From Candidatus Multivorans sp. (GTDB lineage: Bacteria; Acidobacteriota; Thermoanaerobaculia; Multivoradales; Multivoraceae): 64,000 nt of DNA. Both the position numbers and the translations under genes were made by a program. Below, piece after piece: positions 13,561-32,080 of the stretch. The notes below the pieces were generated by a model. That model had not been told where the DNA came from, did no database searches, and saw nothing but the letters and a program-made list of their open reading frames with translations. The stretch is from NCBI GenBank assembly GCA_965247095.1, contig OZ251997.1:407949-471948 (forward strand). Direction: 5' to 3'. Every line of letters starts with the position of its first letter. Position 1 is the first letter of the stretch.

Positions 13561-13950
13561 TCAGCGGATGGTGCGGACTTCGATACCCGGCAGTTCCAGT
13601 TCGAGCCAGGCGCGGTCGCCGGTGAGAGCTGGTATTCCTAACAACGAAGCGGTGGCAAGGCAGGCGCGGTCGCCGAGGCCAAGACCTGCGGATGCAGTTG
13701 CGGGCCGGAGCGCGCCGCTTGAAAGGGCGACTTCTGAATCGAAAGGTAGTGTCTCCATTCTGAATTCGCCCAGCGTCTTCGCGACTTCTCTGGCCTCCCA
13801 TCCACGGTGATGGAGATGGGCGGCGACTTCAGCGAGGTTCACAGTGGAGATTGCCGCGCCGTCGCGCAAGGCGGCCCGGACGACCTCGGCGCCAGGCTCG
13901 CGCCAGAGCAGGGCCAACAGTGCCGAGGCATCGAGGAGGGCCCGAGCCAC
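13561..13950 (-). CDS. vapC: Type II toxin VapC (PIN domain ribonuclease)
   Basis: ALLDASALLALLWREPGAEVV... PIN-domain pattern, C-terminal acidic residues; probable GTG start ~13950 immediately after antitoxin TGA (start uncertain, ORF extends to 14037). Confidence 0.55.
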   Translation of the reverse strand: MARALLDASALLALLWREPGAEVVRAALRDGAAISTVNLAEVAAHLHHRGWEAREVAKTLGEFRMETLPFDSEVALSSGALRPATASAGLGLGDRACLATASLLGIPALTGDRAWLELELPGIEVRTIR

Positions 13951-13951
13951 C

Positions 13952-14293
13952 TCAGTCTCGTGCCGCCTCCCGGCGTCGCTCGGCGATGAAGGCGTCGACT
14001 TCGCTCCCCGATGAACTTGTGCCGTGCTTCCGGGCAAGGGCCTGGGCGCGGGCGACTGCCGCGTCCACCGCCGTTTCCACGGTTGTTATCCGGATCGTGT
14101 CGCCTTCGAGATCGAGGATGACCTTCTGTCGAGGCTGAAAACCCAATGCCGCGCGAAAATGGGCTGGTACTACGAGCCGGCCTGCGGAGTCGATGATGGT
14201 GGAAGTCTGTGCGGGAGCGGGTGTGGGATCATCTGCCATAGCGCAGGAGTCTACCATTGTGGCGCAGAATGGGAGGGTGCTCGGCTGTACCAC
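13952..14293 (-). CDS. vapB: Type II antitoxin VapB (AbrB/SpoVT/MazE-like swapped-hairpin domain)
   Basis: IIDSAGRLVVPAHFRAALGFQPRQKVILDLEGDTIRI matches SpoVT/AbrB fold antitoxins; sits immediately upstream of PIN toxin; true start may be internal (MADDPT...). Confidence 0.6.
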   Translation of the reverse strand: MVQPSTLPFCATMVDSCAMADDPTPAPAQTSTIIDSAGRLVVPAHFRAALGFQPRQKVILDLEGDTIRITTVETAVDAAVARAQALARKHGTSSSGSEVDAFIAERRREAARD

Positions 14294-14413
14294 GGGAGTG
14301 AGAGTAGTGGCCAGTCGCTGGGGCCAACGGTCAGCACGGCGGAGGGACGGACAAAGGTGATCACGCCGTCGCTCCGCCGTGCGTTGCCCGTATCGGCGGG
14401 TCGGTCGGCCCGG

Positions 14414-14710
14414 CTACACGCAGATCGTCATGCTCCGGAAGGTCAGGTGCATCCCGACGGCGGTCAAGAAGGGGGAGCCAAGAGCCTGGCCGACGGCCGT
14501 AAGGAGCGCTCCGGCGACCGAGTCGGTCCTGCAACTGTGGCTCCGCGCTCCTCCAGCCACTCTCGTCAGGTCGGTGACCGTGAGCTGGTCGAGGCCATCG
14601 TGGCCGATGGTCGAGGTGCCGCCCGCCATCACGGCGTCAGGCGGTGTGGCGAAGGAAGCGCCGACGCTCAATACAAGGGCGATCGATGCAGTGGCTAGGA
14701 ATCTCGTCAT
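14414..14710 (-). CDS. Small secreted protein (98 aa), paralog of 16896-17198; two Cys, C-terminal ...CV
   Basis: ATG at 14710 with conserved GAAAGGA RBS; signal peptide MTRFLATASIALVLSVGASFATPP; aligns with the other small protein (LSVG[GA][AS]FA.PP...G.D.L[DE]QL...PFL.A...CV); embedded in the 441-aa Arg-rich ORF which is rejected. Confidence 0.55.
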   Translation of the reverse strand: MTRFLATASIALVLSVGASFATPPDAVMAGGTSTIGHDGLDQLTVTDLTRVAGGARSHSCRTDSVAGALLTAVGQALGSPFLTAVGMHLTFRSMTICV

Positions 14711-14913
14711 GTCCAGTGGTCCTTTCGGTTGTAGAGGGTTGGGGGTAGCCAGGTGGTGGAGGCCGCTGTCCGCGGCTCTCGAGCCACCTATGGACCAAGA
14801 CGGAATCGGCGCGGCTCCGTTCGTCTCGGTCACTTCGGTCCGAGCCGGCAGGGTCGTGTCCTTGCCTTGCTGTGAGCATGAGCCGCCCGACCGGAGGAGC
14901 CCGGGAAGCGGGC

Positions 14914-15603
14914 TCAGCCGCTGAGCATCTGCTCGCGGCGCTCCGCACGGGCGAAGGTCAGGGCGACGATGGCGGCGATGATGAGGGCAATGCCTATACG
15001 GTTCTGGACGGCCATGGTGAGCAACTGCTCGGCGTCGCCCCCTTTCACGGCGAGCGGGTTCCACAATGGCGAGATGCGCGGCTCGACCGAGAGGTATGCC
15101 ATTCGAAGGTTCGGGGCGAGTAGTGCCATGGTTGCCATTGCGCCGGTGACCTCGCTTCGGAAGAGGGTGGCGAAACCCATCGCTGCTACCAGGTAGAAAG
15201 CGGCTCCCTGCGCCGTGCCGTAGATGGTCTGAACAACTGGAAAGGAAGTGAAGAAAGCAAAGGTAAGCACCGCCGTCGGCGTCAGACTTGCAAACAGGAT
15301 CAGCCCTGCGGCAGCGAGTTTTCCGGTCCATACGCGACGGGTGCCGCCGGGTACGGTGTAGGCGATCTCCAGGGTGCGCTCGTCGAGTTCGCCGGCGATG
15401 ATCCGGCCGCCCAGGAAGACGGCGAGAACCGCGACCGGCGCACCAATCAGGGTGTTCTGTGCGTCGGCGGGCTCGAAGTTGGGCCGAAGCCCGGAGATGA
15501 GCAGTATCGCCTGAATTCCCAACCACGGCAGGGGCAGCAGCGGCAGCAGCCAGTAACGCGGGCCCCCGATCAGCACGGCGGAGAGACGGAGAACGGTGAT
15601 CAT
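14914..15603 (-). CDS. ABC-2 family transporter permease, paralog 3 of 3
   Basis: 229 aa, ~6 TM; ~60-70% identical to 15762-16451 and 17458-18150; ATG overlaps upstream relic stop (ATGA). Confidence 0.7.
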   Translation of the reverse strand: MITVLRLSAVLIGGPRYWLLPLLPLPWLGIQAILLISGLRPNFEPADAQNTLIGAPVAVLAVFLGGRIIAGELDERTLEIAYTVPGGTRRVWTGKLAAAGLILFASLTPTAVLTFAFFTSFPVVQTIYGTAQGAAFYLVAAMGFATLFRSEVTGAMATMALLAPNLRMAYLSVEPRISPLWNPLAVKGGDAEQLLTMAVQNRIGIALIIAAIVALTFARAERREQMLSG

Positions 15604-15700
15604 GCCGGAGCTCGGTCACCGGTCGCCTGGGCCGGCCAGAGGTAGCCGTCCCCGACCCGTCCGAGGCCATGGCTCTCGATGACCGGTGTAGTGCCCGCCA
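15601..15700 (-). pseudogene. Relic 3' end of an ABC ATPase gene (duplication scar)
   Basis: Minus-strand translation ...TPVIESHGLGRVGDGYLWPAQATGDRAPA* matches C-terminus of the RND-ABC fusion protein (...PVEPTLEDGYLWLAQAARGRAPT*) and keeps the same ATGA stop/start junction with the following permease. Confidence 0.6.
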
Positions 15701-15761
15701 CGACCGAGTTGGGCGGTACAGCGACAGAGGGGCAGACACTCAAGACAAGTGGCGACTCCTG

Positions 15762-16451
15762 CTAGCGGCTGAGCATCTTCTCGCGACGCTCCGCGCGAGC
15801 GAAGGTCAGGGCGACGATGGCGGCGATGGTGAGCGCGATGCCGATGCGGTTCTGGATGGTCATGGCGAGCAACTGCTCGGCGTCGGCTCCTTTCACGGCG
15901 AGCGGGTTCCAGAACGGCGAGATGCGCAGGTGCCCGCCGAAGCCGGTCACAGAGCCGTTCAAGCCGAATAGCGCAATCGTGACCAAGGCACCGCTCACCT
16001 CGCTGCGGAACAGCGTGGAGAAACCCATCGCCGCGGCTAGGTAGAAGCTGGCTCCTTGGCCAGCACCGTGGAGGGTCTGGACGACCGGAAACGCGGTGAA
16101 GAAGGCGAACGCCAGAACAGTCATCGGGATCAGGCTGCCAAGCAGGATCAGGCCTGCGGCGGTTAGTTTCCCCCACCAGACCCGATGGGCGCCGCCCGGG
16201 ACGGTGTAGGCGACTTCAAGGGTGCGCTCGTCGAGTTCGCCGGTGATGATCCGGCCGCCGAGAAACACAGCGAGGATCGCTACTGGCGCACCGATCAAGG
16301 TGTTCTGTGCAGCGGCGGGTTCGAAGCCGGGACGGCCGGTGAACAGCAACAGCACCGCCTGAAGGCCTAGCCAAGTCAGTGGCAGCAGAGGTAGCAGCCA
16401 GTATCTTGGCCCTCCGATCAGCACGGCGGAAAGACGGACAACGGTTCTCAT
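15762..16451 (-). CDS. ABC-2 family transporter permease, paralog 2 of 3
   Basis: 229 aa multi-TM, paralogous to neighbours; ATG start overlapping relic stop. Confidence 0.7.
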   Translation of the reverse strand: MRTVVRLSAVLIGGPRYWLLPLLPLTWLGLQAVLLLFTGRPGFEPAAAQNTLIGAPVAILAVFLGGRIITGELDERTLEVAYTVPGGAHRVWWGKLTAAGLILLGSLIPMTVLAFAFFTAFPVVQTLHGAGQGASFYLAAAMGFSTLFRSEVSGALVTIALFGLNGSVTGFGGHLRISPFWNPLAVKGADAEQLLAMTIQNRIGIALTIAAIVALTFARAERREKMLSR

Positions 16452-16500
16452 TGCAGCTCTCCCCCGCGGGTTGCTTGGCCCGACCGGAGGTAGGTGTCTC
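16449..16500 (-). pseudogene. Second relic ABC-ATPase 3' end (duplication scar)
   Basis: C-terminus of the 116-aa ORF 16448..16798 reads ...PPRDTYLRSGQATRGGELQ*, resembling ...EDGYLWLAQAARGRAPT*; same ATGA junction with permease start. Confidence 0.45.
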
Positions 16501-16895
16501 TAGGCGGCGCGACGCCTCCTTCGCCTTGCATGTAGAGGGTGGTGGGCGGAGGGACTGGGGTGCAGGTACTCCGGTTCAGCATGTCCCGTCGCGACGAGCG
16601 GCCATCCTGCCGACGATCCAGAGAGCTGGCAGCGAGAAGAGGGATGCGATGGCGACGAACAGGACCGGAGAACCGCCGACGAGGGCCAACAGCCGACCGC
16701 TCAACCAGCTTCGCCCGAAGGCGCTGCCCGGGGCAGGTCGCAGCGGCCGGTAGGGGCGGCTTTGTAGGTCCATGAACGTCGCCATCGAGTCCTTCCAAAC
16801 AGGAGCGTGATGCGCTATCCGCCCGCCTCTTTCCGGGGCCGAAGCCGGCACCCGCAATCAGAGAGTCTCATCGAGCGAGACGGCGCCGTTGTTGG

Positions 16896-17198
16896 CTAGA
16901 CACACACAGCGTCCGCGAGGAACGGACCGGCCAACCCGGCAGCGTGCATGAGCCCCCTGCCCGTGTAGATCCCTACGAAGACAAAGGCCTCGCCCGTCGT
17001 CTCAAAAGCAGCAGTGCAAGCTCCGGACCACCAAGCTGCTCCCATCACGCCGACCATCTCGGCATCCGCGAGTTGTTCGAGCCCGGGATTGTCGACGCCC
17101 GGATAGTCGCCCGCCACGGCCGTGACAGGCGGTTCTGCGAAGGCGCCGCCGACACTCAGTACAAACGCTGCCACTGCGATAGATAGAACTTTCTTCAT
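16896..17198 (-). CDS. Small secreted protein (~100 aa), paralog of 14414-14710; two Cys, C-terminal ...CV
   Basis: ATG 17198 (MKKVLSIAVAAFVLSVGGAFAEPP) with GAAAGGA RBS; upstream in-frame ATG at 17222 also possible; signal peptide; paralogous alignment with the other small protein. Confidence 0.55.
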   Translation of the reverse strand: MKKVLSIAVAAFVLSVGGAFAEPPVTAVAGDYPGVDNPGLEQLADAEMVGVMGAAWWSGACTAAFETTGEAFVFVGIYTGRGLMHAAGLAGPFLADAVCV

Positions 17199-17457
17199 GA
17201 TTCTTGTTCCTTTCCGTTTCATGGGTTCTTGTTGCCGTCGACCCCTTCGGAGAGGCCGACGACGCTGGTAGACGGGAAGGTCCTGCGGAAGCCGAGGAGG
17301 CTTCGCAGGTCCACCGCCGCGCAGCGCCTTACGGCGTGCAGGGACTGTGGACCGCCTATAGACCTATGACGGAATTCGGAGCGGCTTTTTCTGGCGAGGA
17401 CCCTGAGAGGGGGCTGGGTGGCAGTGGCTGCGTGTCAGGTCGAGGGCGGAACCCGGC

Positions 17458-18150
17458 TCAGCCGCCGAGCATCTTCTCGCGGCGTTCGGCGCGGGCGAAT
17501 GTCAGGGCGACGATGGCGGCGATCGCGAGGGCGATGCCGATCCGGTTCTGGACGCTCATCGCGAGCATCTGGTCGGCGTCGGCTCGGTCCACCGAGAGGG
17601 GGTTCCAGAACGGCGAGATGCGGAGGGGGTTTTCGCCGAAGCCGGTGATCAGGCCGTTGAGGCCAAGGAGGCCGGTCGTGGTCAGGGCGCCGGCCACCTC
17701 GCTGCGGAACAGGGTGGCGAGCCCCATGGCTGCAACCAGGTAGAAGGTGACGCCCTGGGCCGCGCCGTAGAGACTCTGGAAGACGGGGAAGGAGGTGAAG
17801 AAGGCGAACGTGACGGACGCCATCAAGGCCAGACTGGCGAGTAGCAACAGGCCGGCTGCGGCGAGCTTGCCGAGCCAGACGCGGTGAGCGCCGCCGGGTA
17901 CGGTGTAGGCGATCTCAAGAGAGCGCTGGTCGAGTTCGCCGGTGATGATCCGCCCGCCCAGGAACACGGCGAGAACGGCCACCGGCATTCCGATCAGTGT
18001 GTTCTGGGCGGCGTCACGTTCGAAGCCCGTCGCGGCGCCGGCCAACAGCAGGATCGCCTGCACGGCTAGCCACAGTAGCGGCAGCAGGGGCAGCAACCAG
18101 TAGCGCCGCCCTGCCAGCAGCACCGCGGACAGACGCAGCACGGCGATCAC
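17458..18150 (-). CDS. ABC-2 family transporter permease, paralog 1 of 3 (cognate of the fused ATPase upstream)
   Basis: 230 aa multi-TM; GTG start overlapping the stop of the RND-ABC fusion ORF (GTGA). Confidence 0.7.
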   Translation of the reverse strand: MIAVLRLSAVLLAGRRYWLLPLLPLLWLAVQAILLLAGAATGFERDAAQNTLIGMPVAVLAVFLGGRIITGELDQRSLEIAYTVPGGAHRVWLGKLAAAGLLLLASLALMASVTFAFFTSFPVFQSLYGAAQGVTFYLVAAMGLATLFRSEVAGALTTTGLLGLNGLITGFGENPLRISPFWNPLSVDRADADQMLAMSVQNRIGIALAIAAIVALTFARAERREKMLGG

Positions 18151-21100
18151 GTCGGGGCTCTGCCGCGCGCCGCCTGCGCCAGCCAGAGGTAGCCGTCCTC
18201 GAGCGTGGGTTCGACTGGTTCGGCCCGCCGATCGGGGCGGTCGGCAGCCAGCACGCGCAGGCGGCTGCTGCCGTCGGGTTCCGGTTGGCGATCGGCGAGC
18301 ACGGACGCCTCGGGAAGCTCCGGCTCCTCATCTCCGGGCGCCGTCCATGACCAGACACGGCCTTCGGCCTCTCGGGACAGCGCCGCCGGCTCGCCGTCGA
18401 ACACCATGCGGCCGCCGGTGAGCACCAGTACGCGCTCGCAGGCCACCGCCACGTCCTCGACGACGTGGGTCGAGAAGAGGACGATGCGGTCCTTGGCCAG
18501 GCGCGAGAGCAGGTTGCGGAAGCGGACGCGCTCGCGTGGGTCGAGGCCGACGGTCGGCTCGTCGACGACGATGATCGGCGGCAGGCGCAACAGCGTGCGG
18601 GCCACCGCGACCCGCTGCCGCATGCCGCCGGAGTAGCCGCCGATCGGTTCGTCCGCTCGCTCGTCGAGTCCGACTTCGCGCAGCAGGGAGCCGATGCGCT
18701 CCGCTCGCTCCGACGCCTCGATCTGGTAGAGCGCGGCGTAGTACTCGAGGTACTGCCGGGCCGTCAGGCGCGCCGGCAGGCCGGCGTCCTGCGGCAGGTA
18801 GCCGACGTAGCGGGCCAGCCGTTTCCGTATCCTGAGCAGGGGCACGCCGCCCAGCGTGATCCGGCCGCGGGTCGAATCCAGAATGCCGGTCACCTGGCGG
18901 AGCAGGGTCGTCTTGCCCGCGCCGTTCGGACCCAGCACGCCGACCATGCCCCGCTCGACATCGAAGCTCACCGCGGCCAGCGCCTTCACCGTGTCGATCG
19001 GCAGATCGAGACCGAAGATCCGGGTTGCTGCCGCCCGCCAGAGGCGGATCAACATGCCGCGCCAGCCACGGGTGCGCCGGCGGCGGGTTGACCGCTGCTC
19101 CCGGCGCACCGTCTCGAGACGGGCCGTGCGACGTCCGAGTTGGATCAGAAGGATGATCGTGGAGAGGATGGCCACGACGATGAACCCGCCCACCGCGGGC
19201 TCGGTGGCGAGAGCCGGACCGACCAGGCCCGCGAGAAGCGCCCAGGGCAGCAGGGCGGACAGAACGCCCTCGATGCCGCCCGGCTCGACTCGACCAAGCG
19301 CGTCGGCGCGGCCGCGGGCACGCCGGACCTCGGTCAGCAGCCGGGAAGCGATCAGCAGTGCGGCAATCCAGGCGCCCAGTTGGATCAGGTCGGCACGGAA
19401 CCTCATGGCCAGGGCGACCGCGCCGGCGAGCAACAGGAGCAAGGGCAGGATGCGGTCCCGCGCGTCGGCGGGGTGGAAGGCCTGACCGCCGCGGTCGACG
19501 ACCTGCTTGGCGAAGTCGGTCGATGCCCGCAGCGCCCGGCGCACCGGCCCCGGCCGGCCGTAGGTCTTGCGCAGGTGACGGACCACCAGCCGGGGCGGTC
19601 CGGCGTCGGCCTCCGGTTCCGGTGTCGGCGGTTTTGGCACCAGCCACACGGTGAGCCCGAGCAGGGCGCCGGCGATGAGCACGGTCGTCGTGACCTGCCA
19701 GAACATGGACTCGATCACGCCGAGAACGAACAACGGGGCGGTGGCCGCGATCACCGCGCCGAGCCAGGTCAGAACCACCCAGGGTCCGACGCGGCTGAAG
19801 ACATCGTCCAGGCGCCGCAGAAAGACGTAGCCGACCGGGATGACGAGCAGCGTGAGCACGGTCGAGGTCAGAAGACCGCCGATCACCAGGGTCGCGAAGG
19901 GCGGCCAGAGCTCGTTCTCGCGTCCCGTGGCGATGGCCAGCGGTGCGAGCGCCGCGATCGTCGTCGCGCTGGTCATCAACACCGGACGCGCGCGCTCGCG
20001 AACCGCGGCCAGGGCGGCGGCGCCCGCACTCCAGCCGGCGCCGAGTACCCGTTGCTGCATCCGGTCGACGAGCAGAACCGCCGGGTTCACCGCCAGCCCG
20101 AGGAGGACGAGCGCCCCGAGCAGCGCCATCGGATCGAGCCCGATGCCGGAGAACATCAGCGCCCACAGCGAGCCGAGCAGGGCGAGCGGCAGCGCGAGCA
20201 GAACAAGGATCGGCAGGGTCATCGACTCGAACGCCACCGCCAGAACCAGGAACACGAGCATCACGACCGGCGCCAGGACGCGCCGGAACCAGCTCGTGTT
20301 CTCGTCCGAGCGGTCGAGCTCGATTGTCGTTCCGGGCGGACGGTGGATGCTGGCAAGCGCCTCGTCCAGGTTGCGGTCGAATTCCAGCCGCGCCGGTCCG
20401 CCGCTTGGTACGTCGGACGAGACGCTGTAGATGACCTCCCGCTCGCGGCGGCCGTTGTGGTGTGTGATCACCGGGGAAGCCGGCGCGCGGCGCACCTGCG
20501 CCAAGGCGGCTACTGGCAGGACGCCAGCGCTCGTGGAGACGCGGAGCCGGGACAGGCCGCTCAGCGACGCCTCGCGCTCGAAACTGCTGCCGTCCACGAC
20601 CCGGGCGTCACTGGGTCGGTTCTCCGCGCGCTGGACGACGATCGGAAGCTCACGGCCGTTCGGAAGCGGGAAGCCGCTGTTGATGCTCGTACCCTCACGG
20701 CCGGCGAGACTCAGCATCGGCAGCACATCGTCGAGCAGGACGCCGAAGGTGTCGAAGGCGCGACGGTTCGGGCTGACGTGGATCTCGTCGGGGCCGGGCC
20801 GTGAGGCTAGAAAGGCGCCGCTGATCCCCTCGATCTCCTTGAGCCGCTCGGCGACCTCCGTGGCCAGACCGGTCAACTGGTCGTTGTCGTTTCCGGACAG
20901 GATGACCCGTTTCGGCCCTGCCCCGAGCAACTCCTGGGCGCCGCCGCCACCGCCGGGACCGCCGCCCCGACCGCCCGGGCCTTCGCCTTCGCCGGGTCGC
21001 AGAATCTCGGTACCGGCGCGCCGGTTCGCGGCCCGGCGTACGAGCTGACGGATCCGCGCCGCGGTCAGTTCCTCGGGGCGGTCCTCGAGTGCCTCGAGGT

Positions 21101-22964: not shown

Positions 22965-22977
22965 GTCGCTTTCCGGT

Positions 22978-25900
22978 TCAGGCGCCGGACGGGTCGCGGC
23001 GGCGCCGGGTCAGTCGCATCGAGTCGAGTATCAGGTAGAGGCAGGGCAGCACGAGGAGCGAGCCGACGGTGGAGGTGAGGATGCCGCCGATGATCGTGTA
23101 CGCCATCGGGCTTCGCAGTTCCGCGGCTTCGCCGGCGCCTATGGCAAGCGGCGCCAGGACCAGGACAGTGGTCAGGGTCGTCATCAGGATCGGCCGCAGG
23201 CGGATCGCGGCGGCCCGGGCCAGTGCGGTGCGCCGCTCCATGCCGGCGGCGAGCAGCCGGCGGGCGGTGGCAATCAGGAGGACCGCGTCGTTCACCGCCA
23301 CGCCCGCGAGCACGATGAGGCCGAGCAGCGCCATGACACCGACCGGCCGTCCGAGGAAGCCGAGGGTGCAGGCGACGCCGACCAGGGCCAGGGGGATCGA
23401 GAACAACACCGTGAGCGGTTGGAGCAGGGACTCGAACGTTCCGGCGAGGACCATCAGCACGAGAACGAGCGCCAGCAGCCCCGCCCAGCGCAGTTCGCCG
23501 ACGGCGCGCTCGCGTTCCTCTTCCTCGCCGGCGAGACGGACGATCAGACCGGAGGGCAGGTCGGTTGCTGCGATCGTCTCGCCGGCTGCCGCGATCGCGC
23601 GCGGGTAGTCGCTGTCGTCGGCGACCCGGGCGGTCACCTGGGCGACGCGGCGCTGGTCGCGGCGGAAGACCTCGCGGGCGCCCTCGGCGGGGACGAAGCG
23701 GGCGACTTGGCCGAGGGCGAGGTCCGCGCCGTCGTTGCTCGTGAAGCGCAGTTTGGCGAGTTCCTCGGGCCGCGGCTGGGGCAGAGAGAGGACGACGTGG
23801 CGCTCCTCGTCTCCAGTCGAGAGCAGGGTGACCCTGCGGCCGTCGAGTGCGGCCTGGAGCACCCGGGCGATCGTTTCCAGGCCGACGCCGAGGCCGTCGG
23901 CCATCGCGCGGTCGAGTTCGATCCGCAGTTCCGGCGGTCCGCCCTCGAACGAGGAGCGGACGTTCCAGAGTTCGGATCGCACAGCCATCGCGTCGCGCAA
24001 CCTGGTGGCCGCCAGGCGCAGGTCGGGCAGCGACTGGCCCGCGATCTCGACCACGATCGGCGGTCCCGCGGAGCCGAGCGCGCGCGATAGCGCCGACGCC
24101 CCGACCTCCCACTCGATCTCGGTATCCGGCAGGTCTTGGAAGTTGGGCTGCAGGGCGGTCACGATCTGGCCGCCGGTCGGCCCTTCGGCGGACAGCCGGA
24201 CGAGCAGGCGGGCCGTGTTCTCCTCAGTCAGCTCCGTGGTCACGAGCCGATCGTCCTCGGGCAGGCGGCCGACCTCGGCCTGGATCGCCTGCAGGTGCTC
24301 GCCGGCAGCCTGCCTGACCGCCTCTTCCAGCGTCGCCACGGCGCCGGCGGTGGCCTCGACGCGCTGGCCGGGCGGGCCGACCATGCGCACCGAGAACTGC
24401 CGCGGGTCGGCAGGCGGCAGCAGTTCGCTGCCCAGTCCGAGCAGAACGTAGACGGCGCCGGCGGCGGCGAGCACCGCCACTCCGACGACCAGCCAGCGAA
24501 GCTGAAGCAGGCCGAGAACCAGGCGCTCGACGGCGCCGAAGGCCCAGCCCAGCGGACGCGCTTCGTCTTCGTCAGCGTCCACCGGCATGCTGATGGATGC
24601 CGCCGCCGATGCGTCGGCCGTGGGCTCGGGCGCGGCGGTTTGCGGTTTGGCGCGCGGCAGGAGCCAGCGCGACAGGGCCGGAATCAGCATGATCGCGACC
24701 GCCAGGGAGGCGCCGAGGGAGGCGGTGACGGTGAAGGCGATGCCTTCGATCAGGCGCGCCGCCAGACCCTGGACGAAGAGGACGGGCAGGAAGACAACGC
24801 ACGTAGTGAGCGTCGAGGCGGCAATCGCGCCCGCGACCTCGCCCGTGCCCCTGGCGGCCGTGTCGGCTGCCGAGGCGCCGGGGCGGTGGCGGCGGTGGAT
24901 GCTCTCCACGACGACGATCGCGTTGTCGACCAGCATGCCGGCGCCGAGCGCCAGCCCGGCCAGGGTGATGATGTTCAGAGAGTGCCCCCACAGCCGCATC
25001 GCGAACAGCGCGACGAACAGGGACACCGGCACCGCTGAAGCGACGACCAAGGTCGGACCGAGGGAGCGCAGGAACAGCGCCAGCACGACGACCGCCAGGG
25101 CGATGCCGATCAGCGCCGCGTTCGTCAGGTCGTCCATCGCGTCCTCGATCAGCGCGGCGTCGTCGTTGACCATCGAGACGAGGACCCGGGGCAGGTCGCG
25201 CTCGAGGTCGTCGAGCGCCGCGCGCACGGTGCGCGAGACCTCCACGGTGTTGGCGCCCGCCTCCTTGAACACCTGCAGGCCGACGCCCTCCTGGCCGTTC
25301 ACCCGCACCAGGTGGTCGATCTCGGCGTGTGCGAGTTCGACCGTGGCGACGTCGGAGACCCGGATCGGCTGACGGACCTGCCGGCCTCCCTCCGCCTGCT
25401 GGGTGCGGTAGCGCACGACGACCCGCTCGACATCGCGGGAGTTCCGGAACCGGGAGATGCCTCGAACGAGATAGACCTGACCGCCGTCCTCCAGGGTGCC
25501 GGCGTCGATGTCGACGTTCTCGGCCACGAGGCGTTGCTCCAGTTGGTCCAAGGTGACGCCGAACGCCTGCAGGCGGTAGCGGTCGACGCGTACGCGGACC
25601 TCCAGTTCCCGCCCTCCGAGGACCCGCACCTCGGCAACGTCGGCGAGCTGCTCCATGGCCGGCGCCACCTGACGGCGCGCCAGGCGGCGGAGCTCGGCGA
25701 GATCAGGTCCTTCCGGCTCGGCGGCCAGCCCAAGGGTGATCACCGGCGACTGCCTCGGATCGAGTTGGCGGACCAGGACCTCGTCGACTTCGGGGTCGGC
25801 CGCGACCGGATTGACCGCCTTCTGCACGTCGATCAGCGCCAGGTCCATGTCGGCGTCCCAGTCGAAGCGGACGGTGGCGATCAGGCGGCCGGTGCGGGCG

Positions 25901-26172
25901 ACCTGGTGCACCTCGCGGAGGCCGCGCACCGTGAACAGGCGCTGCTCGACCTGCTCGCCGTAGAGCCGCTCCATCTCGGTCGGCGGCCGGTCGCCGGAAC
26001 GCACGGCGACGACGATGGTCGGCGAACGCAGGTCGGGCAGGAGGTCGATCGGCAGTTCACGCCACGACATCCAGCCCACCAAGGCGAATGCCAGGGCGGT
26101 GACGGTGACCGCTACGGGCCGGCGCGCAGCCAGGCGGGCGGGGCCGAAGGTCTCACCGGATGTTCGAGTCAT
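22978..26172 (-). CDS. RND efflux transporter permease subunit (AcrB/HAE family), 1064 aa
   Basis: MTRTSGETFGPARLAARRPVAVTVTALAFALVGWMSWRELPIDLLPDL..., 12-TM RND organisation with two large periplasmic loops; 13 bp upstream of the fusion gene. Confidence 0.8.
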   Translation of the reverse strand: MTRTSGETFGPARLAARRPVAVTVTALAFALVGWMSWRELPIDLLPDLRSPTIVVAVRSGDRPPTEMERLYGEQVEQRLFTVRGLREVHQVARTGRLIATVRFDWDADMDLALIDVQKAVNPVAADPEVDEVLVRQLDPRQSPVITLGLAAEPEGPDLAELRRLARRQVAPAMEQLADVAEVRVLGGRELEVRVRVDRYRLQAFGVTLDQLEQRLVAENVDIDAGTLEDGGQVYLVRGISRFRNSRDVERVVVRYRTQQAEGGRQVRQPIRVSDVATVELAHAEIDHLVRVNGQEGVGLQVFKEAGANTVEVSRTVRAALDDLERDLPRVLVSMVNDDAALIEDAMDDLTNAALIGIALAVVVLALFLRSLGPTLVVASAVPVSLFVALFAMRLWGHSLNIITLAGLALGAGMLVDNAIVVVESIHRRHRPGASAADTAARGTGEVAGAIAASTLTTCVVFLPVLFVQGLAARLIEGIAFTVTASLGASLAVAIMLIPALSRWLLPRAKPQTAAPEPTADASAAASISMPVDADEDEARPLGWAFGAVERLVLGLLQLRWLVVGVAVLAAAGAVYVLLGLGSELLPPADPRQFSVRMVGPPGQRVEATAGAVATLEEAVRQAAGEHLQAIQAEVGRLPEDDRLVTTELTEENTARLLVRLSAEGPTGGQIVTALQPNFQDLPDTEIEWEVGASALSRALGSAGPPIVVEIAGQSLPDLRLAATRLRDAMAVRSELWNVRSSFEGGPPELRIELDRAMADGLGVGLETIARVLQAALDGRRVTLLSTGDEERHVVLSLPQPRPEELAKLRFTSNDGADLALGQVARFVPAEGAREVFRRDQRRVAQVTARVADDSDYPRAIAAAGETIAATDLPSGLIVRLAGEEEERERAVGELRWAGLLALVLVLMVLAGTFESLLQPLTVLFSIPLALVGVACTLGFLGRPVGVMALLGLIVLAGVAVNDAVLLIATARRLLAAGMERRTALARAAAIRLRPILMTTLTTVLVLAPLAIGAGEAAELRSPMAYTIIGGILTSTVGSLLVLPCLYLILDSMRLTRRRRDPSGA

Positions 26173-26211
26173 CGTGCCGGGCTCCGGTGGTCAGAGCTGC
26201 CGAATCGGTTC

Positions 26212-27312
26212 TTATTGGGAAACCCGGACGCGGGTGCCGTCGGTCAGGGTTTCGAGGCCGCGAACGACGACCCGCTCGCCGAGCTCCAGCCCCTGGCGAA
26301 TCTCGGTGATCTCGTCGTCGCCGAGACCGAGAACGACTTCGCGCCGCACCGCGCGCTGGCCGTCGAGGACGAAGACGACGCGCCGGCCGCCGCGCTCGGT
26401 AACCGCCTCGCGCGGAATGACGGGGACGTCGTTGCGCTGCTCGACGACCAGGGTCACTTCGACGAACATGCCCGGCCGCAGCAGGCCGCCGGGATTGCGC
26501 ACCGCCACCTCGGCGCGGAAGGTGTGGGTGACCGGGTCGACCTCGGGGGACAGGCGGACGACCCCGCCTTCGAACGTCTGGCCCTCCCAGGCGAAGTGCC
26601 TGAGCCGGCCCCGCTGCCCGGGGTGGACCCGCGCCAGTTCGGGGCCCACGAGGTCGATGTCGGCGATCAGGGAGGCGACCGGAGCGATCCGGGCCACCTG
26701 GAAGCCCCGGGAAACGAGCTGGCCGTCGGCGATCGGCATGCCGTTCGGGTCGCGGGCGAGTTCCATCAGCACGCCGCCGATCGGGGTCAGCATCTTCGCG
26801 CGGTCCTCGGTAAGCAGGCTCTGCTCCCAGGTCGCCTTCGCGTCTTCGAGCGCGATCTCGGCGCGGCGCAGCTCTTCGGCACTGATCAGTTCCTGCTCGA
26901 ACAGCTTGGCGCGGGCGTCGCGTTCGGCCTCGGCGCCCAGGTAGGCTTGGTGGGTCGCCTCGACCCGGGCCGCGAGCCGTGCGTCCTCGCCGGTGACCTC
27001 CGCGATCATCTGCTCGGGGACGACGCGGTCGCCTTCGGCCAGCCGGTCGCCGGAACCGTTGCGGCCGATCAGCAGTCTCCCCGGCGTCTCGACCTGCAGG
27101 ACGATGCTCTCGGCCGCTCGCAGAGTGCCGGTGGCGACGATCAGATCCTCGACGTTGCCGGTTTCGACCTCGGCCGCGGTGACCGGCACCAGGAAGTCGA
27201 CGGGGTCCGTGCTGCCGCCGCCTTCGCAGGCGACGATCACGGCGCAGGCGGCTATCGCGAGGCCCGCATGCCGGAGGCCGGCGATCGGGCGGGAGGGCTG
27301 CCGCGGGCTCAT
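26212..27312 (-). CDS. Efflux RND adaptor subunit (membrane fusion protein, HlyD/AcrA family), probable lipoprotein
   Basis: Start moved to ATG 27312 (MSPRQPSRPIAGLRHAGLAIAACAVIVAC), overlapping upstream stop as ATGA; coiled-coil segment (AEELRRAEIALEDAKATWEQSLL) plus beta-barrel/MP region typical of MFPs; upstream 173 aa of the ORF are Arg-rich junk. Confidence 0.75.
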   Translation of the reverse strand: MSPRQPSRPIAGLRHAGLAIAACAVIVACEGGGSTDPVDFLVPVTAAEVETGNVEDLIVATGTLRAAESIVLQVETPGRLLIGRNGSGDRLAEGDRVVPEQMIAEVTGEDARLAARVEATHQAYLGAEAERDARAKLFEQELISAEELRRAEIALEDAKATWEQSLLTEDRAKMLTPIGGVLMELARDPNGMPIADGQLVSRGFQVARIAPVASLIADIDLVGPELARVHPGQRGRLRHFAWEGQTFEGGVVRLSPEVDPVTHTFRAEVAVRNPGGLLRPGMFVEVTLVVEQRNDVPVIPREAVTERGGRRVVFVLDGQRAVRREVVLGLGDDEITEIRQGLELGERVVVRGLETLTDGTRVRVSQ

Positions 27313-30300
27313 AGCCCCGCGCCCCCGGTCTCGGCGCGGCCGGCGGCGGCGCTGTTGTCGAGCCGCACGAAGCGCACCGCGTCCGCGGCGACCGCTTTGC
27401 CGGAGGTCTCGTCGCTCAGGACCAGTTCGGTCGGGCCGCCGGCCAGATCGAAGTCGCCCAGCACCGCCCATCCCGCGCCCGCGGCCGCGGCGTCGAAGTC
27501 GATCGGCCGGGAGACGCCGCCGTTCTGCAACTCCAGGTCGTAGGTGCCGAGAGCCAGCCCCAGGTTCACCGAGACCCGTACGCCGCCGTCGTCGTCCCCT
27601 CCTCTTCGTGGTGCGTCTCCACCTCCGTCGCCGACCCGCACTTCCCGACGCACGGCCGTGGCGCCGGCTGGCAGGGGCGAGAGCGACGGCACGTGCAGTT
27701 CGACCCGCCAGCGGCCGTCTGCCGGCAACTCCGTCCGGTAGATCGCGCGGCTGTTCCCTTCGCCCGCGGGCGCCAGGGCGGTCGTGCGGCGGTAGCGGCC
27801 CCAACTGGTGGGCTGTGCGTAGCGCGACCATTCGGTCGGCGGTCCGCCGAAGCTCTGGTAGACGAGCAGACCCTGATCCGTCTGGTTCGACGGCGCGAAG
27901 AAGCCAGCGAGACCGCCCTGCAGCCGGAAGCCGCCGGCATCCGCTTCATCCGTCTCGATCGAGAAGCCGGGGTCCAGGTCGTCGACGACGATCATGTCGG
28001 TCGTTGACTCGAGGAAGGCGGGCAGCCAGTCGGCCGGCCGCGTGCCGCGCAGTGGTTCGGCATCGACGATCGTCTCGTTGTTGACGCTCGGCAGATCGAT
28101 CGGGAACTCCCGGCGGTTCAGCGACAGGTAAGGTGAAGCCAGCATCCTGCCCGGCACCCTGGAAGTGACCAGACCGAATTCGACGGAGCTGTTTCCCGGG
28201 ATCAGGGTCGGCTCGCTGGACTCCCAGCGCACGCCGCTCGGTGCGCGGACGGCGTAGCGGAGCCGGAACAGGCCCGGAGCCTCCTCGCCGTTGTGGACGA
28301 AGAGACGGGTCTGGTACTGCGGCAGGCCCTGGTCGTCGTCCGCCAGCCGCACGAGTTCGGCGGGGGATACGACGAAGCCCGGCAGGTCGGTCTGGTGGAG
28401 GAAGTCGCCGACCAGGCCGGCGAGGTCCAGGCCGGCTTCCTGAGCGGCCCGTTCGAGGTCGGCGGCGGTGAAGGTCGATCCCCGGTGGTCGCGCATGAGG
28501 TTCGCGAGCATCGCGGCGGTCCGTTCCCGGCCGGCGCCGTCCAGAATTGCGCCGGCAAGGGCCGAAGTCTTCAGATAGAGCGCGTTCAACGCTTTCTTCG
28601 GCTCCTCTTCGACGTCCATTTCCGTCAGCGAGGCGCCGAGAACGGCGTCCCATACCTCGGGGCGGTCGGTGAGGCTCTGTACGATGGTGCTGGAGACCGA
28701 GGAGGCGCCTCCGCCGAGCTGGCTGAAGATGGCGCCCTGCAACACGCTGGCGATCGTCCAGCCGAACTCGCGGTCGAACAGGTGGGCCGAGAAGTACGAT
28801 TCGCCGCCGTTCACCAGCCGGTTCACCAGGTTGTTGCACAGTTCCTCGAGCGCCAGCGCCTCCGGACCGCGGGCGCCGGTCTGGTACATGAACAGATTGC
28901 GGACACCGCCGACCTCCACGTTGCCGCCCGAGAAGTCGTTGCGGAAGAACTGCTGCAGCCCGGAGGCCTTTGCCCGGGGCAGACCGCCCTCCTGCTCCTC
29001 GAACCGCTCCGGGTTGCGGAACAGGAACTCGAAGCGAGCGGTCGGCAGGCTGCTCTCGCTGAGCAGCAGCATGCCCGGCGGCGCGCGCTCGGTGTCCATC
29101 CGCCAGCCGCCGCCGTAGGAGCGCAGGGTCCAGGGAACTTCAACCAGGGTGAGCTGACGGTAGGGGTAGGGCAGGCCCAGCTCGCGCGCGCTGGTGAAGC
29201 GCTCGGCGGCGACTGCCTCGATCTCTTCCCGGGCGTCGGCGAAGAGCTCCACGTTTCTCAGATGGCGGGGGTGGAGGAGCAGTTCGATCTCGACGCCCTC
29301 GACCTCCGTCGTCCGGCGATCGAACCGACCGGCGACCAGGGCCGCTTCGGGCACGACTGCCACGGGTGCGAACCGTTGCCGTTCGCCGGCCGGCTCGGCT
29401 CTGCCTGGCCCGGCGACCGTCCAGCCCGAGGGGGCGCCGACCTCCAGGTCGAGTTCGAAGAAGTCTCTGGGACGCCTTCGCGGATCGGTGAGGCCGACCG
29501 ACGTGCCGGGGCGCGGCATCCAGGCCAGCGCGGCGGGCAGCGCGACGTAGCGGCGCTCCGCAAAGCCGTTCAGGGCGCCGAGAAGGATGATCTGGGCGTC
29601 CTGGAACTTGATCCGGTTGAAGTCGATCGCGGAATCCAGGTACGCGAAGCGAAGGTCGGGCCGTCCGTGGGCGCGCAGGCGAAGGTCGACGGCCTCGCCC
29701 GCGGCCGGCGAGCGCCCGAGGTCGACCTCGAGCAGGCCGTCGCGGTGGTTGAATCCGAGCGTCGCGCCGGCGGTATCCTCAATGGCGTCGACCTGGAGGC
29801 CGGGGTTCAGGCTGAAGAGAGCCTGCGAACCGCCGGCGGCGAGGAACCGGACGTTGACATCGAGGGTCAGGCGGCCGCGCGGTGCGATGTCGACGGCGCC
29901 GTGGATCTGTTCCAGGTCAAGGACCGGTTCGCTCTGGCGTGCCGTGTGGGCGATGCGCCAGTCGTCGATTTCGTCGACCCGGTTGCCGGCCGTGACCGCG
30001 GCGGCTGCGATCGTTCCGATGGCCGCCGCCAGGAGGCCGGCGCCGGCGGTGGCCCACAGGCGTCGCCGGGTGTCGTCGAGCCGGGGATGGACGGCGACGG
30101 CGACCGCAAGCATCCCAACGGCCAGCGCCGCGACCGTGGCCCGGTTCATCAAGTTGAAGGCGGTCCAGATCTGGGGCGCGACCTCGGAAGGATTGGTGCC
30201 GAAGCCGCCGTTGATCGCCAGCATCGGCAGGACGTAGGTCGGCACGCGGAAGGAGAGAAGCATCGGCCCGATGGCCAGCCCGAGGCCCAGGAGCGCGGCG

Positions 30301-30860
30301 ACCAGGCGGTTGCCGCTCAGGAGTGACGCCACATGGACGAAGGCGATGGTCAGAGCCAGCGCCGGCAGCGCCTCGGTCAGCAGGTAGGCCCAGACGGAAC
30401 TCCAGATCGCCGGTTCGCCCACGTACCAGCCGAGCGCCACGCCGAGATGGCCGATGCCCTGGATGATCATCATGCCGATGAAGGCGACGCCCCAGATCAT
30501 GATCAGGGCGCCGAGGAAGCGGCCGAGGACGAGTTCGGCGTTCGAATAGGGCCGGCTGTCCAGGACCTCGATGACGCGGTCGCGCCGGTCCCGTGCGCGC
30601 AGATCGAAGGCCAGGAACACGACGCCGATCGCGAGAACCATCGTCTGCGTCGAAGCCATCTGAGCGAGCAGGAACTTCGGGCTCATCGCGCCGACCGTCG
30701 CCGAGAACGACGAAAAGAGGCCGTGGATAACCCAGTAGTAGCCGTACGACACCAAGCCGACGAGGAGTGCGAGGCCCGAGAACAGCCAGAAGCGGAACAG
30801 CCGGCGGAGGGTGCGCATCTCGGCGCGGGCCAGCGACCAGACGGCGGCGAGTGAGATCAC
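27309..30860 (-). CDS. ABC-2 type permease fused to a large (~900 aa) C-terminal extracytoplasmic domain of unknown function (1183 aa)
   Basis: N-terminal ~280 aa with 6 TM (MISLAAVWSLARAEMRTLRRLFRFWLFSGLALLVGLVS...), then long soluble domain without recognisable catalytic motif; GTG start overlapping ATPase stop (GTGA). Confidence 0.65.
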   Translation of the reverse strand: MISLAAVWSLARAEMRTLRRLFRFWLFSGLALLVGLVSYGYYWVIHGLFSSFSATVGAMSPKFLLAQMASTQTMVLAIGVVFLAFDLRARDRRDRVIEVLDSRPYSNAELVLGRFLGALIMIWGVAFIGMMIIQGIGHLGVALGWYVGEPAIWSSVWAYLLTEALPALALTIAFVHVASLLSGNRLVAALLGLGLAIGPMLLSFRVPTYVLPMLAINGGFGTNPSEVAPQIWTAFNLMNRATVAALAVGMLAVAVAVHPRLDDTRRRLWATAGAGLLAAAIGTIAAAAVTAGNRVDEIDDWRIAHTARQSEPVLDLEQIHGAVDIAPRGRLTLDVNVRFLAAGGSQALFSLNPGLQVDAIEDTAGATLGFNHRDGLLEVDLGRSPAAGEAVDLRLRAHGRPDLRFAYLDSAIDFNRIKFQDAQIILLGALNGFAERRYVALPAALAWMPRPGTSVGLTDPRRRPRDFFELDLEVGAPSGWTVAGPGRAEPAGERQRFAPVAVVPEAALVAGRFDRRTTEVEGVEIELLLHPRHLRNVELFADAREEIEAVAAERFTSARELGLPYPYRQLTLVEVPWTLRSYGGGWRMDTERAPPGMLLLSESSLPTARFEFLFRNPERFEEQEGGLPRAKASGLQQFFRNDFSGGNVEVGGVRNLFMYQTGARGPEALALEELCNNLVNRLVNGGESYFSAHLFDREFGWTIASVLQGAIFSQLGGGASSVSSTIVQSLTDRPEVWDAVLGASLTEMDVEEEPKKALNALYLKTSALAGAILDGAGRERTAAMLANLMRDHRGSTFTAADLERAAQEAGLDLAGLVGDFLHQTDLPGFVVSPAELVRLADDDQGLPQYQTRLFVHNGEEAPGLFRLRYAVRAPSGVRWESSEPTLIPGNSSVEFGLVTSRVPGRMLASPYLSLNRREFPIDLPSVNNETIVDAEPLRGTRPADWLPAFLESTTDMIVVDDLDPGFSIETDEADAGGFRLQGGLAGFFAPSNQTDQGLLVYQSFGGPPTEWSRYAQPTSWGRYRRTTALAPAGEGNSRAIYRTELPADGRWRVELHVPSLSPLPAGATAVRREVRVGDGGGDAPRRGGDDDGGVRVSVNLGLALGTYDLELQNGGVSRPIDFDAAAAGAGWAVLGDFDLAGGPTELVLSDETSGKAVAADAVRFVRLDNSAAAGRAETGGAGL

Positions 30861-31858
30861 TGTCGGGCCTCCTCTCCGGAGGTCGTGTCGCCTGCGTCCG
30901 CGTCCGCCGATCCTTCGCCGCCATCGGACCGAGCGTTGTGGGCGGCTTTGTTCCCGCCGAAGTGCTCATCGGTCACCAGGGCTTCGGCACGACCGCGCGC
31001 GACCATGAAGGCGAGGTATCCCTCCTCGAGGGTCGGCGACGAGGCGATCCGCGCTCGTGCCGGTACGCCGCCGGGCGCCGCGACGGCGCGGTAGGTCGTT
31101 TCGTTCATGCTGACGGTGCGCGAGACGATCTCGAAGCCGCCTTCGGGCTGCGGCGCGGATGTCGGCAGGGTCAGCTCGAACACCTGGCCCTGGGCGCGCT
31201 CAAGCAGTTGGGTGGGGGAGCCGCGAAAGACGATCTTGCCCGCGTCGAGCAGGGCGAGGTCGTTGCAGCCGGTGCCCAGGTCGGCGACGATGTGGGTCGA
31301 GAGGATGATCGTCCGCTCGCGGCCGAGGCTCGCCATCAGTTGGCGGAAGCGGAGCCGCTCCTCCGGGTCCAGACCGACCGTGGGTTCGTCGACCACCAGC
31401 AGGCGGGGTTGGTGGATCAGCGCCTGGGCGATGCCGAGGCGGCGGGTCATGCCGCCTGAGAGCTTCTTCACCTTGCGGTGCGCGACCTCGCCCAGGCCGA
31501 CGCTGTCGAGGACGGAATCGACGCGGGCCCGGCGGGCGCCGCGGTCGTCCAGGCCGGAGAGCTCGGCCAGGGTGTCGAGGACCTCCTCCACGCGGTGCAG
31601 ACGCCAGGCGCCGAATTCCTGCGGCAGATAGCCGAGATGTGCGCGGACGCCGCGCCGCTGCGAGACCACGTCGTGGCCGAAGACGGTTGCCGTCCCGCCG
31701 CTGGGCTTGAGCAGCGTGCAGACGATCCGCATCAGGGTGCTCTTGCCGGCGCCGTTGGGGCCCAGCAGGCCGAAGAGACCCGCGCCGATCTCCAGATCGA
31801 CGCCGTCGAGAGCTACTGTGCCGCCGCGATAGACGTGGCGGAGGCCGCGCGCGGCCAC
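30857..31858 (-). CDS. ABC transporter ATP-binding protein
   Basis: Walker A GPNGAGKSTL, signature LSGGMTRRLGIAQAL, Walker B LLVVDEPTVGLD, H-loop STHIVAD; acidic C-terminal tail; first gene of the minus-strand transporter locus. Confidence 0.85.
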   Translation of the reverse strand: MAARGLRHVYRGGTVALDGVDLEIGAGLFGLLGPNGAGKSTLMRIVCTLLKPSGGTATVFGHDVVSQRRGVRAHLGYLPQEFGAWRLHRVEEVLDTLAELSGLDDRGARRARVDSVLDSVGLGEVAHRKVKKLSGGMTRRLGIAQALIHQPRLLVVDEPTVGLDPEERLRFRQLMASLGRERTIILSTHIVADLGTGCNDLALLDAGKIVFRGSPTQLLERAQGQVFELTLPTSAPQPEGGFEIVSRTVSMNETTYRAVAAPGGVPARARIASSPTLEEGYLAFMVARGRAEALVTDEHFGGNKAAHNARSDGGEGSADADAGDTTSGEEARQ

Positions 31859-31989: not shown

Positions 31990-32005
31990 GTATGCCGGCG
32001 CATAC
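31990..32005. promoter_or_regulatory. Perfect 16-bp palindrome GTATGCCGGCGCATAC in divergent promoter region (candidate operator)
   Basis: Located in the 222-bp intergenic region between the ABC ATPase gene (minus) and the cytochrome c gene (plus). Confidence 0.3.
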
Positions 32006-32080
32006 CGGATACCCTTTTTCTGCCAACATCTCTGGACACCCCCGAGTTTCTCGACATTCCAAAAGGGAGGCCTCCACACA

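Follow-up and report, generated by a model that had tools for sequence, protein, structure and literature searches.

The 64,000-nucleotide stretch of Candidatus Multivorans sp. analysed here (Acidobacteriota; contig OZ251997.1 of assembly GCA_965247095.1; hereafter the window) harbours at positions 14414-31858 of its minus strand a transporter locus of ten genes, one of which encodes in a single polypeptide a resistance-nodulation-division (RND) pump fused to the ATPase of an ATP-binding cassette (ABC) transporter. The locus is two-layered: a six-gene core operon of 14.4 kb, which is widely conserved and previously undescribed, is followed by a lineage-specific and compositionally distinct array of small genes. 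On balance, the core probably encodes one composite envelope exporter driven by both ATP and the proton-motive force (PMF), which would have been co-opted in this lineage for peptide export or immunity. RND pumps run on PMF and ABC pumps on ATP, and both are commonly treated as separate efflux solutions. To our knowledge, cooperation between the two has so far been inferred from kinetics only. A conserved RND-ABC fusion residing in a fixed operon with a single adaptor constitutes a natural experiment on the passage of substrates from the inner to the outer membrane, and could reveal whether ATP hydrolysis couples to the RND cycle.

The fused polypeptide and the six-gene operon

As the window has a GC content of about 70%, gene calling combined open reading frame (ORF) length, codon-position GC and domain searches. 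All ten minus-strand genes were located, with the gene order and coordinates that an earlier, model-made note on this DNA had given. The features of the core, including the nucleotide-binding domains (NBDs), the transmembrane (TM) helices and the membrane fusion protein (MFP), are as follows (aa, amino acids).

17458-31858, minus strand: six-gene core (ABC ATPase, giant ABC-2 permease, MacA-like adaptor, RND1, RND2::ABC fusion, 230-aa permease)
30857-31858, minus strand: NBD1, stand-alone ABC-2-type ATPase of 333 aa with GTG start (ABC_tran, E 1.5e-29)
27309-30860, minus strand: giant ABC-2 permease of 1183 aa, 7 predicted TM helices followed by ~880 extracytoplasmic residues
26212-27312, minus strand: MFP adaptor of 366 aa with an N-terminal hydrophobic/lipobox-like anchor
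22978-26172, minus strand: RND1, 1064 aa (ACR_tran over the full length, E 1e-198)
18147-22964, minus strand: RND2::ABC fusion, one unbroken ORF of 1605 aa (ACR_tran at aa 8-1049, E 5e-139; ABC_tran at aa 1331-1471, E 9e-27)
19818-22964, minus strand: RND2 domain, fusion aa 1-1049 (holding the ACR_tran match)
19647-19778, minus strand: two extra TM helices after RND TM12, aa 1063-1106 (hydropathy and AlphaFold2 helices)
19557-19589, minus strand: displaced NBD beta1 strand, aa 1126-1136, LVVRHLRKTYG (conserved; predicted beta-strand)
18996-19556, minus strand: insert of ~187 aa inside the NBD, aa 1137-1323, with an amphipathic helix and 4-5 membrane helices (hydropathy and AlphaFold2)
18147-18995, minus strand: remaining fused NBD2 and ABC-2-type C-terminal domain, aa 1324-1605
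17458-18150, minus strand: small ABC-2 permease A of 230 aa, GTGA overlap with the fusion, predicted core partner of the fused NBD

An assembly or frameshift artefact as origin of the fusion is ruled out, given that over 115 clusters with a length of about 1600 aa hold both domains and that residues at the junction are invariant. These clusters, obtained in a search with the fusion protein, each carry PF00873 as well as PF00005, are 54-97% identical, and bear source labels of Holophagales, Acidobacteriota and Thermoanaerobaculia metagenome-assembled genomes (MAGs). Three homologues (P0060, P0067 and P0068) reach 1840-1876 aa due to an N-terminal extension of ~250-290 aa with Pfam matches to sigma-70 region 4, which is either a further fusion or a gene call merged with an upstream extracytoplasmic function (ECF) sigma gene.

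The AlphaFold2 model of the fusion (m2b5915269ad9) reached a predicted local distance difference test score (pLDDT) of 85.5, and in the stretch connecting both domains the extra-TM region forms helices at model residues 22-41 and 48-69. In the following short strand, VRxLxKxYG, the residues V, R, L, K and Y are invariant, and 112 of 115 homologues have the G. When this strand was spliced in silico onto the post-insert NBD, the product could be aligned, starting at its residue 5, with beta1 in the NBDs of ABCA7, TM_1403 and TM0544, and the match to such solved NBDs ran from end to end. Hence, the strand represents the true beta1, and the membrane helices behind it are an insertion within the NBD. 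A search with the linker alone yielded 32 matches among 1.84 billion representative proteins, the complete ones all being 1558-1601 aa long with the linker at ~1032-1320; as matches are so few and the complete ones all of fusion size, the linker is exclusive to a rare fusion family. Walker A, Q-loop, signature (SGGMRQR), Walker B and H-loop of the fused NBD are invariant across the 115 fusion homologues, and NBD2 is thus predicted to be catalytically competent.

The fusion resides in a gene neighbourhood which is itself conserved. In at least ten independent loci of relatives the order ATPase, giant permease, MFP, RND, fusion and ~230-aa permease recurs, namely in identical form at 97% (L004), 80% (L005/L006), 73% (L007/L008), 65% (L003) and 57% (L001/L002) identity, and flanks differ among the more distant of loci L001-L008 while the core order stays. 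The six-gene order is also retained in the most distant members, L092 (Acidobacteriota UBA4820; linker identity of 34%) and L096 (GCA_035649235.1), as well as in two low-GC MAG contigs labelled as delta proteobacterium (GC 0.476) and Pseudomonadales (GC 0.565). Altogether, loci sharing the core order range from 0.476 to 0.727 in GC and from 34 to 97% in identity. A GTDB scan with the linker profile gave at least three true loci (L011-L013) among the matches listed, with taxonomic breadth being under-sampled; in L012 and L013 the six-gene order is partially visible. Gene-neighbourhood comparison, which the earlier note had suggested for deciding whether the genes form separate units with unrelated surroundings, therefore revealed a core order kept in relatives with unrelated flanks.

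That note had also described nearly every junction as a 4-bp overlap and the entire 17.5 kb as a single translationally coupled operon. Such overlaps are found at only three of the nine junctions (GTGA between NBD1 ATPase and giant permease, ATGA between giant permease and MFP, GTGA between fusion and permease A). The remaining core junctions display gaps of 39 nt (MFP/RND1) and 13 nt (RND1/fusion), and the four junctions of the distal part gaps of 259, 444, 158 and 203 nt. Since the distal junctions are gapped and overlaps occur in the core only, translational coupling is plausible solely for the six-gene core and not for the distal four genes. A consensus scan of the locus gave no promoter, and the number of terminators matched chance expectation.

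Two reduced forms of the operon indicate how the core is composed. A four-gene form (L009) comprises ATPase, giant permease (33% identical to that of the window), MFP and one RND without a fusion, and a two-gene form (L091, organism GC 0.468) consists of a fusion homologue and the small permease only. As both forms exist, the six-gene core is a module A (NBD1, giant TM domain, MFP, RND1) joined to a module B (RND2::NBD2, small TM domain). Both modules contain related parts, NBD1 being 38% identical to the fused NBD2 over 279 aa and RND1 31% identical to RND2. This modularity is what would be expected if independent transporters merely shared one operon, i.e. a giant-permease ABC-2 exporter, an ordinary MFP-RND pump and a second RND incidentally fused to an ABC-2 exporter, with no relay between them, and operons with several unrelated efflux genes are indeed common. 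We consider this improbable, however. A covalent fusion that persists down to ~34% identity and in more than 115 clusters speaks for functional coupling, the gene order of the core, which has 4-bp overlaps, does not vary across phyla, and even the four-gene form still pairs the ABC-2 system with an MFP-RND pump. A single heterodimeric ABC transporter, with NBD1 and NBD2 serving the giant and the small TM domain, is less likely as well, since each pair exists alone elsewhere (L009 and L091).

Relay residues, ABC-2 permeases and adaptor

In both RND1 and the fusion, positions 3-1020 of the 1021 positions in the PF00873 profile are covered, corresponding to the twelve-TM architecture with two large periplasmic loops. 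Both proteins miss the NCBIfam cut-off for RND_permease_2 of 1250 bits (548 bits for RND1, 362 bits for the fusion), and judged from these scores they belong to a divergent clade within the hydrophobe/amphiphile efflux-1 (HAE-1)-like RNDs. For mapping of the proton relay, the RND domain was aligned to solved HAE-1 pumps, with the AcrB numbering of the relay positions (D407/D408 in TM4, K940-N941 in TM10) being the one that we take to be established. In RND2, the TM4 motif VDNS, which places D-N at AcrB D407-D408, is invariant in 115 homologues, and the TM10 motif NP, which places N-P at K940-N941, is found in 114 of them; the TM11 arginine is retained (RxRP). RND1 carries VDNAIV (D-N) in TM4 and AVNDAVLL (N-D) in TM10; across eight loci, including the four-gene form, D-N and N-D are the same, with AVNDAILL in one locus. 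The canonical AcrB relay is thus absent from both RNDs, and the acidic residues that are kept number two in RND1 and one in RND2.

The probable partner of the fused NBD is the small permease, which in relatives always lies directly 3' of the fusion, the two-gene form included. The permeases of the window score 17-25 bits against PF12679 (cut-off 27.2 bits), and the L091 orthologue has a precomputed PF12679 match. In a profile comparison by hhalign, the small permease aligned to aa 78-262 of the giant permease TM domain with a probability of 81% (E 1.3e-5), spanning the motif GE-x-D/E-x-R-x-x-E...P that is typical of ABC-2 permeases.

These two sets of data bear on the idea that the RND pump is powered or gated by ATP: RND2 would have lost its relay, and the fused ATPase, anchored by its insert and the small permease, would drive the trimer cycle without transporting anything itself. 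The uniform N-P in TM10 and D-N in TM4 over the same homologues in which the ATPase motifs are invariant would agree with this, just as the membrane insert inside the NBD, which is well placed for transmitting motion, and the L091 locus, where fusion and small permease occur with neither a second RND nor an adaptor beside them. Nevertheless, we assign it a low probability. One TM4 aspartate and the TM11 arginine are kept and would still allow proton coupling, the small partner bears the ABC-2 permease signature of a true transporter half, and obligatory NBD dimerisation fits an ordinary ABC-2 dimer more simply; moreover, no precedent is known.

Module A contains its own ATPase. The best NCBIfam matches of NBD1 are DrrA and GldA, both well below cut-off, and on inspection its Walker A, Q-loop, signature, Walker B and H-loop are intact. 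The giant permease following it was modelled by AlphaFold2 from an alignment of 75 sequences (pLDDT 89.4, predicted TM-score (pTM) 0.86). In this model, a helical membrane domain occupies the N-terminus and three beta-sandwich regions the C-terminus; further parts are a beta-domain, a mixed alpha/beta domain and a helical one. A Foldseek search of the PDB returned IRAP, ERAP1, PepN and EryP (E 1e-16 to 1e-14, ~640 columns, 9-15% identity), and the C-terminal part matches Golvesin_C (E 3.9e-9). None of the 75 family members displays the zinc motif HEXXH (one has HxxEH at an unrelated position), and no match of the giant permease to the Peptidase_M1 Pfam family was obtained. Reading of the sequence places YGGGWRMD where GXMEN is expected and ASGLQQFF in the HEXXH helix. 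According to the model, the extracytoplasmic domain is therefore a catalytically dead M1-aminopeptidase fold, i.e. a pseudo-enzyme, whose conserved glycine-rich loop YGGGWRMD might bind peptides. An active M1 peptidase that processes the double-glycine leaders of the peptides described below in the periplasm is ruled out by the lack of HEXXH in every family member. Compared to PepN, ERAP1, IRAP and the lanthipeptide peptidase EryP, the multi-domain fold over ~640 residues is shared. Differences are the zinc motif missing throughout the family, an identity of 9-15% and the attachment of the domain to an ABC-2 membrane part. In a MAG labelled Gammaproteobacteria (L010, 2745-16311), four tandem paralogues of this M1-like giant permease of 1122-1139 aa each occur without an adjoining ATPase, adaptor or RND.

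The adaptor scores 158.8 bits against RND_mfp (TIGR01730, cut-off 94.9), and MacA is its nearest match of known structure (E 1e-15 to 3e-10), before AcrA and MexA (~1e-7). A MacA-like adaptor fits a component that serves a mixed ABC/RND machine.

The relationships of the fused NBD also invite the reading as an exporter of lipids, lipoproteins or surface polymers, in which a lipid-linked substrate of the ABCA/Wzm type would be passed to the RND pump. The best solved matches of this NBD are the lipid exporters ABCA7, ABCA4, ABCA3 and ABCA1, and transport of lipids or lipid-linked polymers is frequent among type V ABC-2 exporters. A resemblance to ABCA NBDs is, however, common to bacterial ABC-2 NBDs, the fold of the periplasmic domain is of peptidase type, and the examined loci show no conserved glycosyltransferase, polymerase or lipid-synthesis genes next to the operon. 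Such a function is consequently very unlikely, and for the surface-polymer role that the earlier note had envisaged no supporting evidence was obtained.

Accessory array and hypervariable peptides

Downstream of the core, the following features were identified.

14310-17222, minus strand: accessory array, two further permease paralogues and two ~100-aa peptides, with lower GC at third codon positions (GC3)
16896-17198 (or to the ATG at 17222), minus strand: pep1, 100 aa (or 108 aa), Shine-Dalgarno-like GAAAGGAAC upstream
15762-16451, minus strand: permease paralogue B, 229 aa, 73% identical to A
14914-15603, minus strand: permease paralogue C, 229 aa, 71% identical to A and 96% to the L004 orthologue
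14414-14710, minus strand: pep2, 98 aa, same family as pep1, Shine-Dalgarno-like GAAAGGACC upstream
14310-14397, minus strand: 5' remnant of a fourth permease copy, 88 nt, reading V-I-T-F-V-R-P-S-A-V-L

This array is dynamic. GC3 of the last four genes, which most relatives lack, amounts to 0.68-0.81 vs 0.875-0.90 in the core genes; the permease remnant is part of a repeat family (D4) and matches the 5' ends of permeases A-C at 65-73% identity; and copies recombine, permease B being recombinant relative to the 97% relative (L004). Colinearity with that relative stops at the beginning of the pep1 core. The identity of permeases B and C to A, and to one another, is 71-75%, with every family-invariant residue retained. 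An ORF of 69 aa with a TM segment between pep1 and permease B (16576-16857) was considered as an immunity gene and dismissed for its lack of conservation in the 97% relative.

Directly after the array, at 13561-14293 of the minus strand, an AbrB/SpoVT-like antitoxin and a PIN-domain toxin form a toxin-antitoxin (TA) pair. The same pair is found directly after the small permease in L005/L006 and after a peptide-permease cassette in L095; its positions in relatives thus indicate that the cassettes sit between operon and TA pair. The overall GC of window positions 14001-18000 is 0.654-0.655 compared to 0.69-0.72 for the core operon, which is consistent with later acquisition or quicker turnover of cassette array and TA pair.

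The two small secreted proteins postulated by the earlier note both exhibit signal-peptide-like N-termini. They belong to a family of 40 clusters, all of 95-101 aa and none with a Pfam match, which share a conserved Sec-like signal ending in A-F-A and a pro-region ending in gLeQLtDaDmvaVtGG, with hydrophobic residues at -4, -7, -12 and -15. Hydrophobic residues at exactly these positions before a leader end of GG, GA or GS make up the double-glycine leader consensus, to which the 40 clusters conform. The core behind the leader is ~45 aa long, hypervariable and hydrophobic, with two cysteines near-invariant in position. The leader pattern, the conserved leader, the hypervariable cysteine-containing core and the adjoining membrane-protein gene resemble double-glycine class II bacteriocins and microcins, from which the window peptides differ by an extra N-terminal Sec-type signal and by the lack of a C39-peptidase ABC exporter nearby. 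The order of a peptide gene followed by a membrane-protein gene likewise recalls bacteriocin-immunity pairs. LanFEG and McbEF are examples of ABC-2 transporters with known roles in immunity or export; unlike these, the candidate immunity or export partner here is a permease paralogue on its own, which would depend on the ATPase fused to the RND.

In all five peptide loci examined (the window, L004, L093/L094 and L095), the peptide genes lie directly behind the small permease of the operon and beside a further permease paralogue, which makes a lineage-specific link between peptides and pump likely. The earlier note had raised the possibility of a dedicated exporter for the co-encoded proteins. 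If the whole locus were such a secretion machine for the two small proteins, this location, the resemblance of the peptides to exported two-cysteine peptides and the precedent of MacAB-TolC, which exports the Sec-delivered enterotoxin STII, a peptide with two disulfides, from the periplasm, would be readily understood. Against this, most operon genomes are without peptides (L001, L003, L005, L007, L092 and L096 carry the operon and lack them), and the array is lineage-specific and of atypical composition. The operon is hence older than the peptides and its native substrate must be a different one, and the core is not primarily their dedicated exporter. This part of the earlier proposal is therefore distinctly improbable, while the lineage-specific link stands; the peptides are a lineage-specific addition closely tied to the pump and not its original cargo.

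A probable composite exporter compared with known systems

A composite exporter would work as follows. Module A would contribute NBD1, the giant permease with its dead M1 fold and beta-sandwiches, the MacA-like adaptor and RND1. Module B would contribute RND2, tethered via two plus 4-5 extra membrane helices to the second ABC-2 NBD, and the fused NBD2 would operate with the minimal ABC-2 permease of 230 aa, whose gene comes next and overlaps that of the fusion. RND1 and RND2 may assemble into a mixed trimer, as MdtB and MdtC do, which would be served by the single adaptor, and an outer-membrane factor (OMF) encoded elsewhere would complete the channel. The ABC-2 units, one or two in number, would spend ATP on extracting an amphipathic or hydrophobic substrate from the cytoplasmic face of the inner membrane; in the periplasm it might be held by the M1-like domain, and the channel of RND, adaptor and OMF would then expel it. 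As a tidy idea, a trimer of two RND2 and one RND1 would contain two copies of NBD2, precisely the dimer required by an ABC-2 transporter. In this lineage, mobile cassettes, each pairing a hypervariable double-glycine-leader peptide of the two-cysteine type with an extra small-permease paralogue, have been added downstream, and the permease paralogues would most likely plug into the fused NBD for export of, or self-immunity to, bacteriocin-like peptides.

Several points weigh against such an exporter. Co-assembly of the subunits and their stoichiometry are deduced solely from operon structure, and modules A and B exist separately and could act independently even when encoded side by side. No OMF (TolC/OEP) gene is present in the locus or among the ~30 other scanned ORFs of the window, which are housekeeping genes; the earlier note was correct in listing one adaptor and no OMF gene. 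The only OMF seen beside any operon copy is an OEP/TolC-family gene of 613 aa in GCA_035649235.1 (L096, 6942-8783, minus strand), which divergently adjoins the six-gene operon. The relay is non-canonical in both RNDs (AcrB D408 to N and K940 to N), and PMF coupling itself is presumed. As the peptides carry a Sec-type signal, no ABC step is needed for their crossing of the inner membrane; no C39 peptidase that could cut their GG leader was found, Peptidase_C39 giving no match in the scanned window ORFs or the called genes of L004, L093 and L095. Finally, their absence from most operon genomes means that they say little on the native substrate.

A bolder proposal regards RND2::ABC as a new class of dual-energy transporter, in which a single polypeptide would mechanically couple a primary engine run by ATP and a secondary one run by PMF, either with the ABC part powering or gating an RND with a degenerate relay or with a direct hand-over of substrate across first the inner and then the outer membrane; the permease paralogues would then act as specificity cartridges for hypervariable toxin-like peptides. 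We treat this as a speculative option that is doubtful at present.

The composite exporter that we favour resembles established systems in parts only. With MdtABC-TolC of E. coli the locus shares one adaptor gene ahead of a tandem pair of paralogous RND genes and, presumably, an OMF from another site in the genome; a tandem RND pair behind a single adaptor is the established layout of MdtABC. MdtB and MdtC are among the best NCBIfam matches of the window RNDs, yet far under their cut-offs, and in contrast to MdtABC the relay residues differ, RND2 is fused to an ABC ATPase, and two ABC-2 permeases as well as a second ATPase are part of the operon. MacAB-TolC is similar in combining an adaptor, the nearest solved relative of the one in the window, with an ATP-driven transporter that has a large periplasmic domain. 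It differs in that the window locus holds no FtsX/MacB-type permease with four TM helices, but ABC-2 permeases and RND pumps instead. Among type V (ABC-2) exporters such as DrrAB, NosFY, GldAFG, TM_1403 and ABCA/ABCG, the window locus stands apart by an NBD whose beta1 is split off by a membrane insert of ~187 aa and which is fused to an RND, by a permease with an extracytoplasmic M1-like domain of 880 aa, and by missing all equivalog cut-offs.

Membership in the Gld, Nos, Lol or MacB systems was rejected on the basis of missing components and sub-threshold scores, in agreement with the earlier view that no standard multidrug, lipoprotein-release (Lol), Gld or Nos system is encoded. GldG, NosD, NosL and an FtsX-type permease are lacking among the locus proteins, no locus protein matches FtsX or MacB_PCD, and scores for GldA (184.9 bits, cut-off 402.6) and GldF (20.7 bits, cut-off 288.5) remain low. 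A literature search including exact-phrase full-text queries found no paper describing an RND-ABC fusion, an ABC-2/M1 permease, or peptides with a signal plus GG leader in Acidobacteria. The fusion family appears to be unstudied, with databases labelling its members only as AcrB or ABC ATPase. All parts stem from known superfamilies; what is new is the combination of a covalent RND-ABC fusion, a membrane insert within an NBD, a dead-M1 permease and the fixed six-gene arrangement. Swappable permease paralogues paired with hypervariable double-glycine peptides look new in addition, and the coupling mechanism has a realistic chance of being novel in kind.

Three further observations concern the flanks. 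Upstream of the operon, a divergent gene at 31991-33562 (plus strand) encodes ~493-523 aa with a weak Cu2_monoox_C match (peptidylglycine-monooxygenase-like, E 4.6e-5); it is kept beside the operon in the close relatives L004-L008 and not in distant ones. At 33633-34628 (minus strand), an Asp/Glu racemase ORF contains three tandem units of ~23 aa (GWRGTAPAANQSMGPSSGAWMTP...) in the middle of the enzyme, and its Pfam match is split in two. On the other side, a CbbQ/NorQ-type AAA+ ATPase followed by a von Willebrand factor type A (VWA)-domain protein is encoded at 5178-8299 (plus strand), and a further large VWA protein at 154-2772 (minus strand); the AAA+/VWA pair is syntenic with the flanks of L005, L007 and L093.

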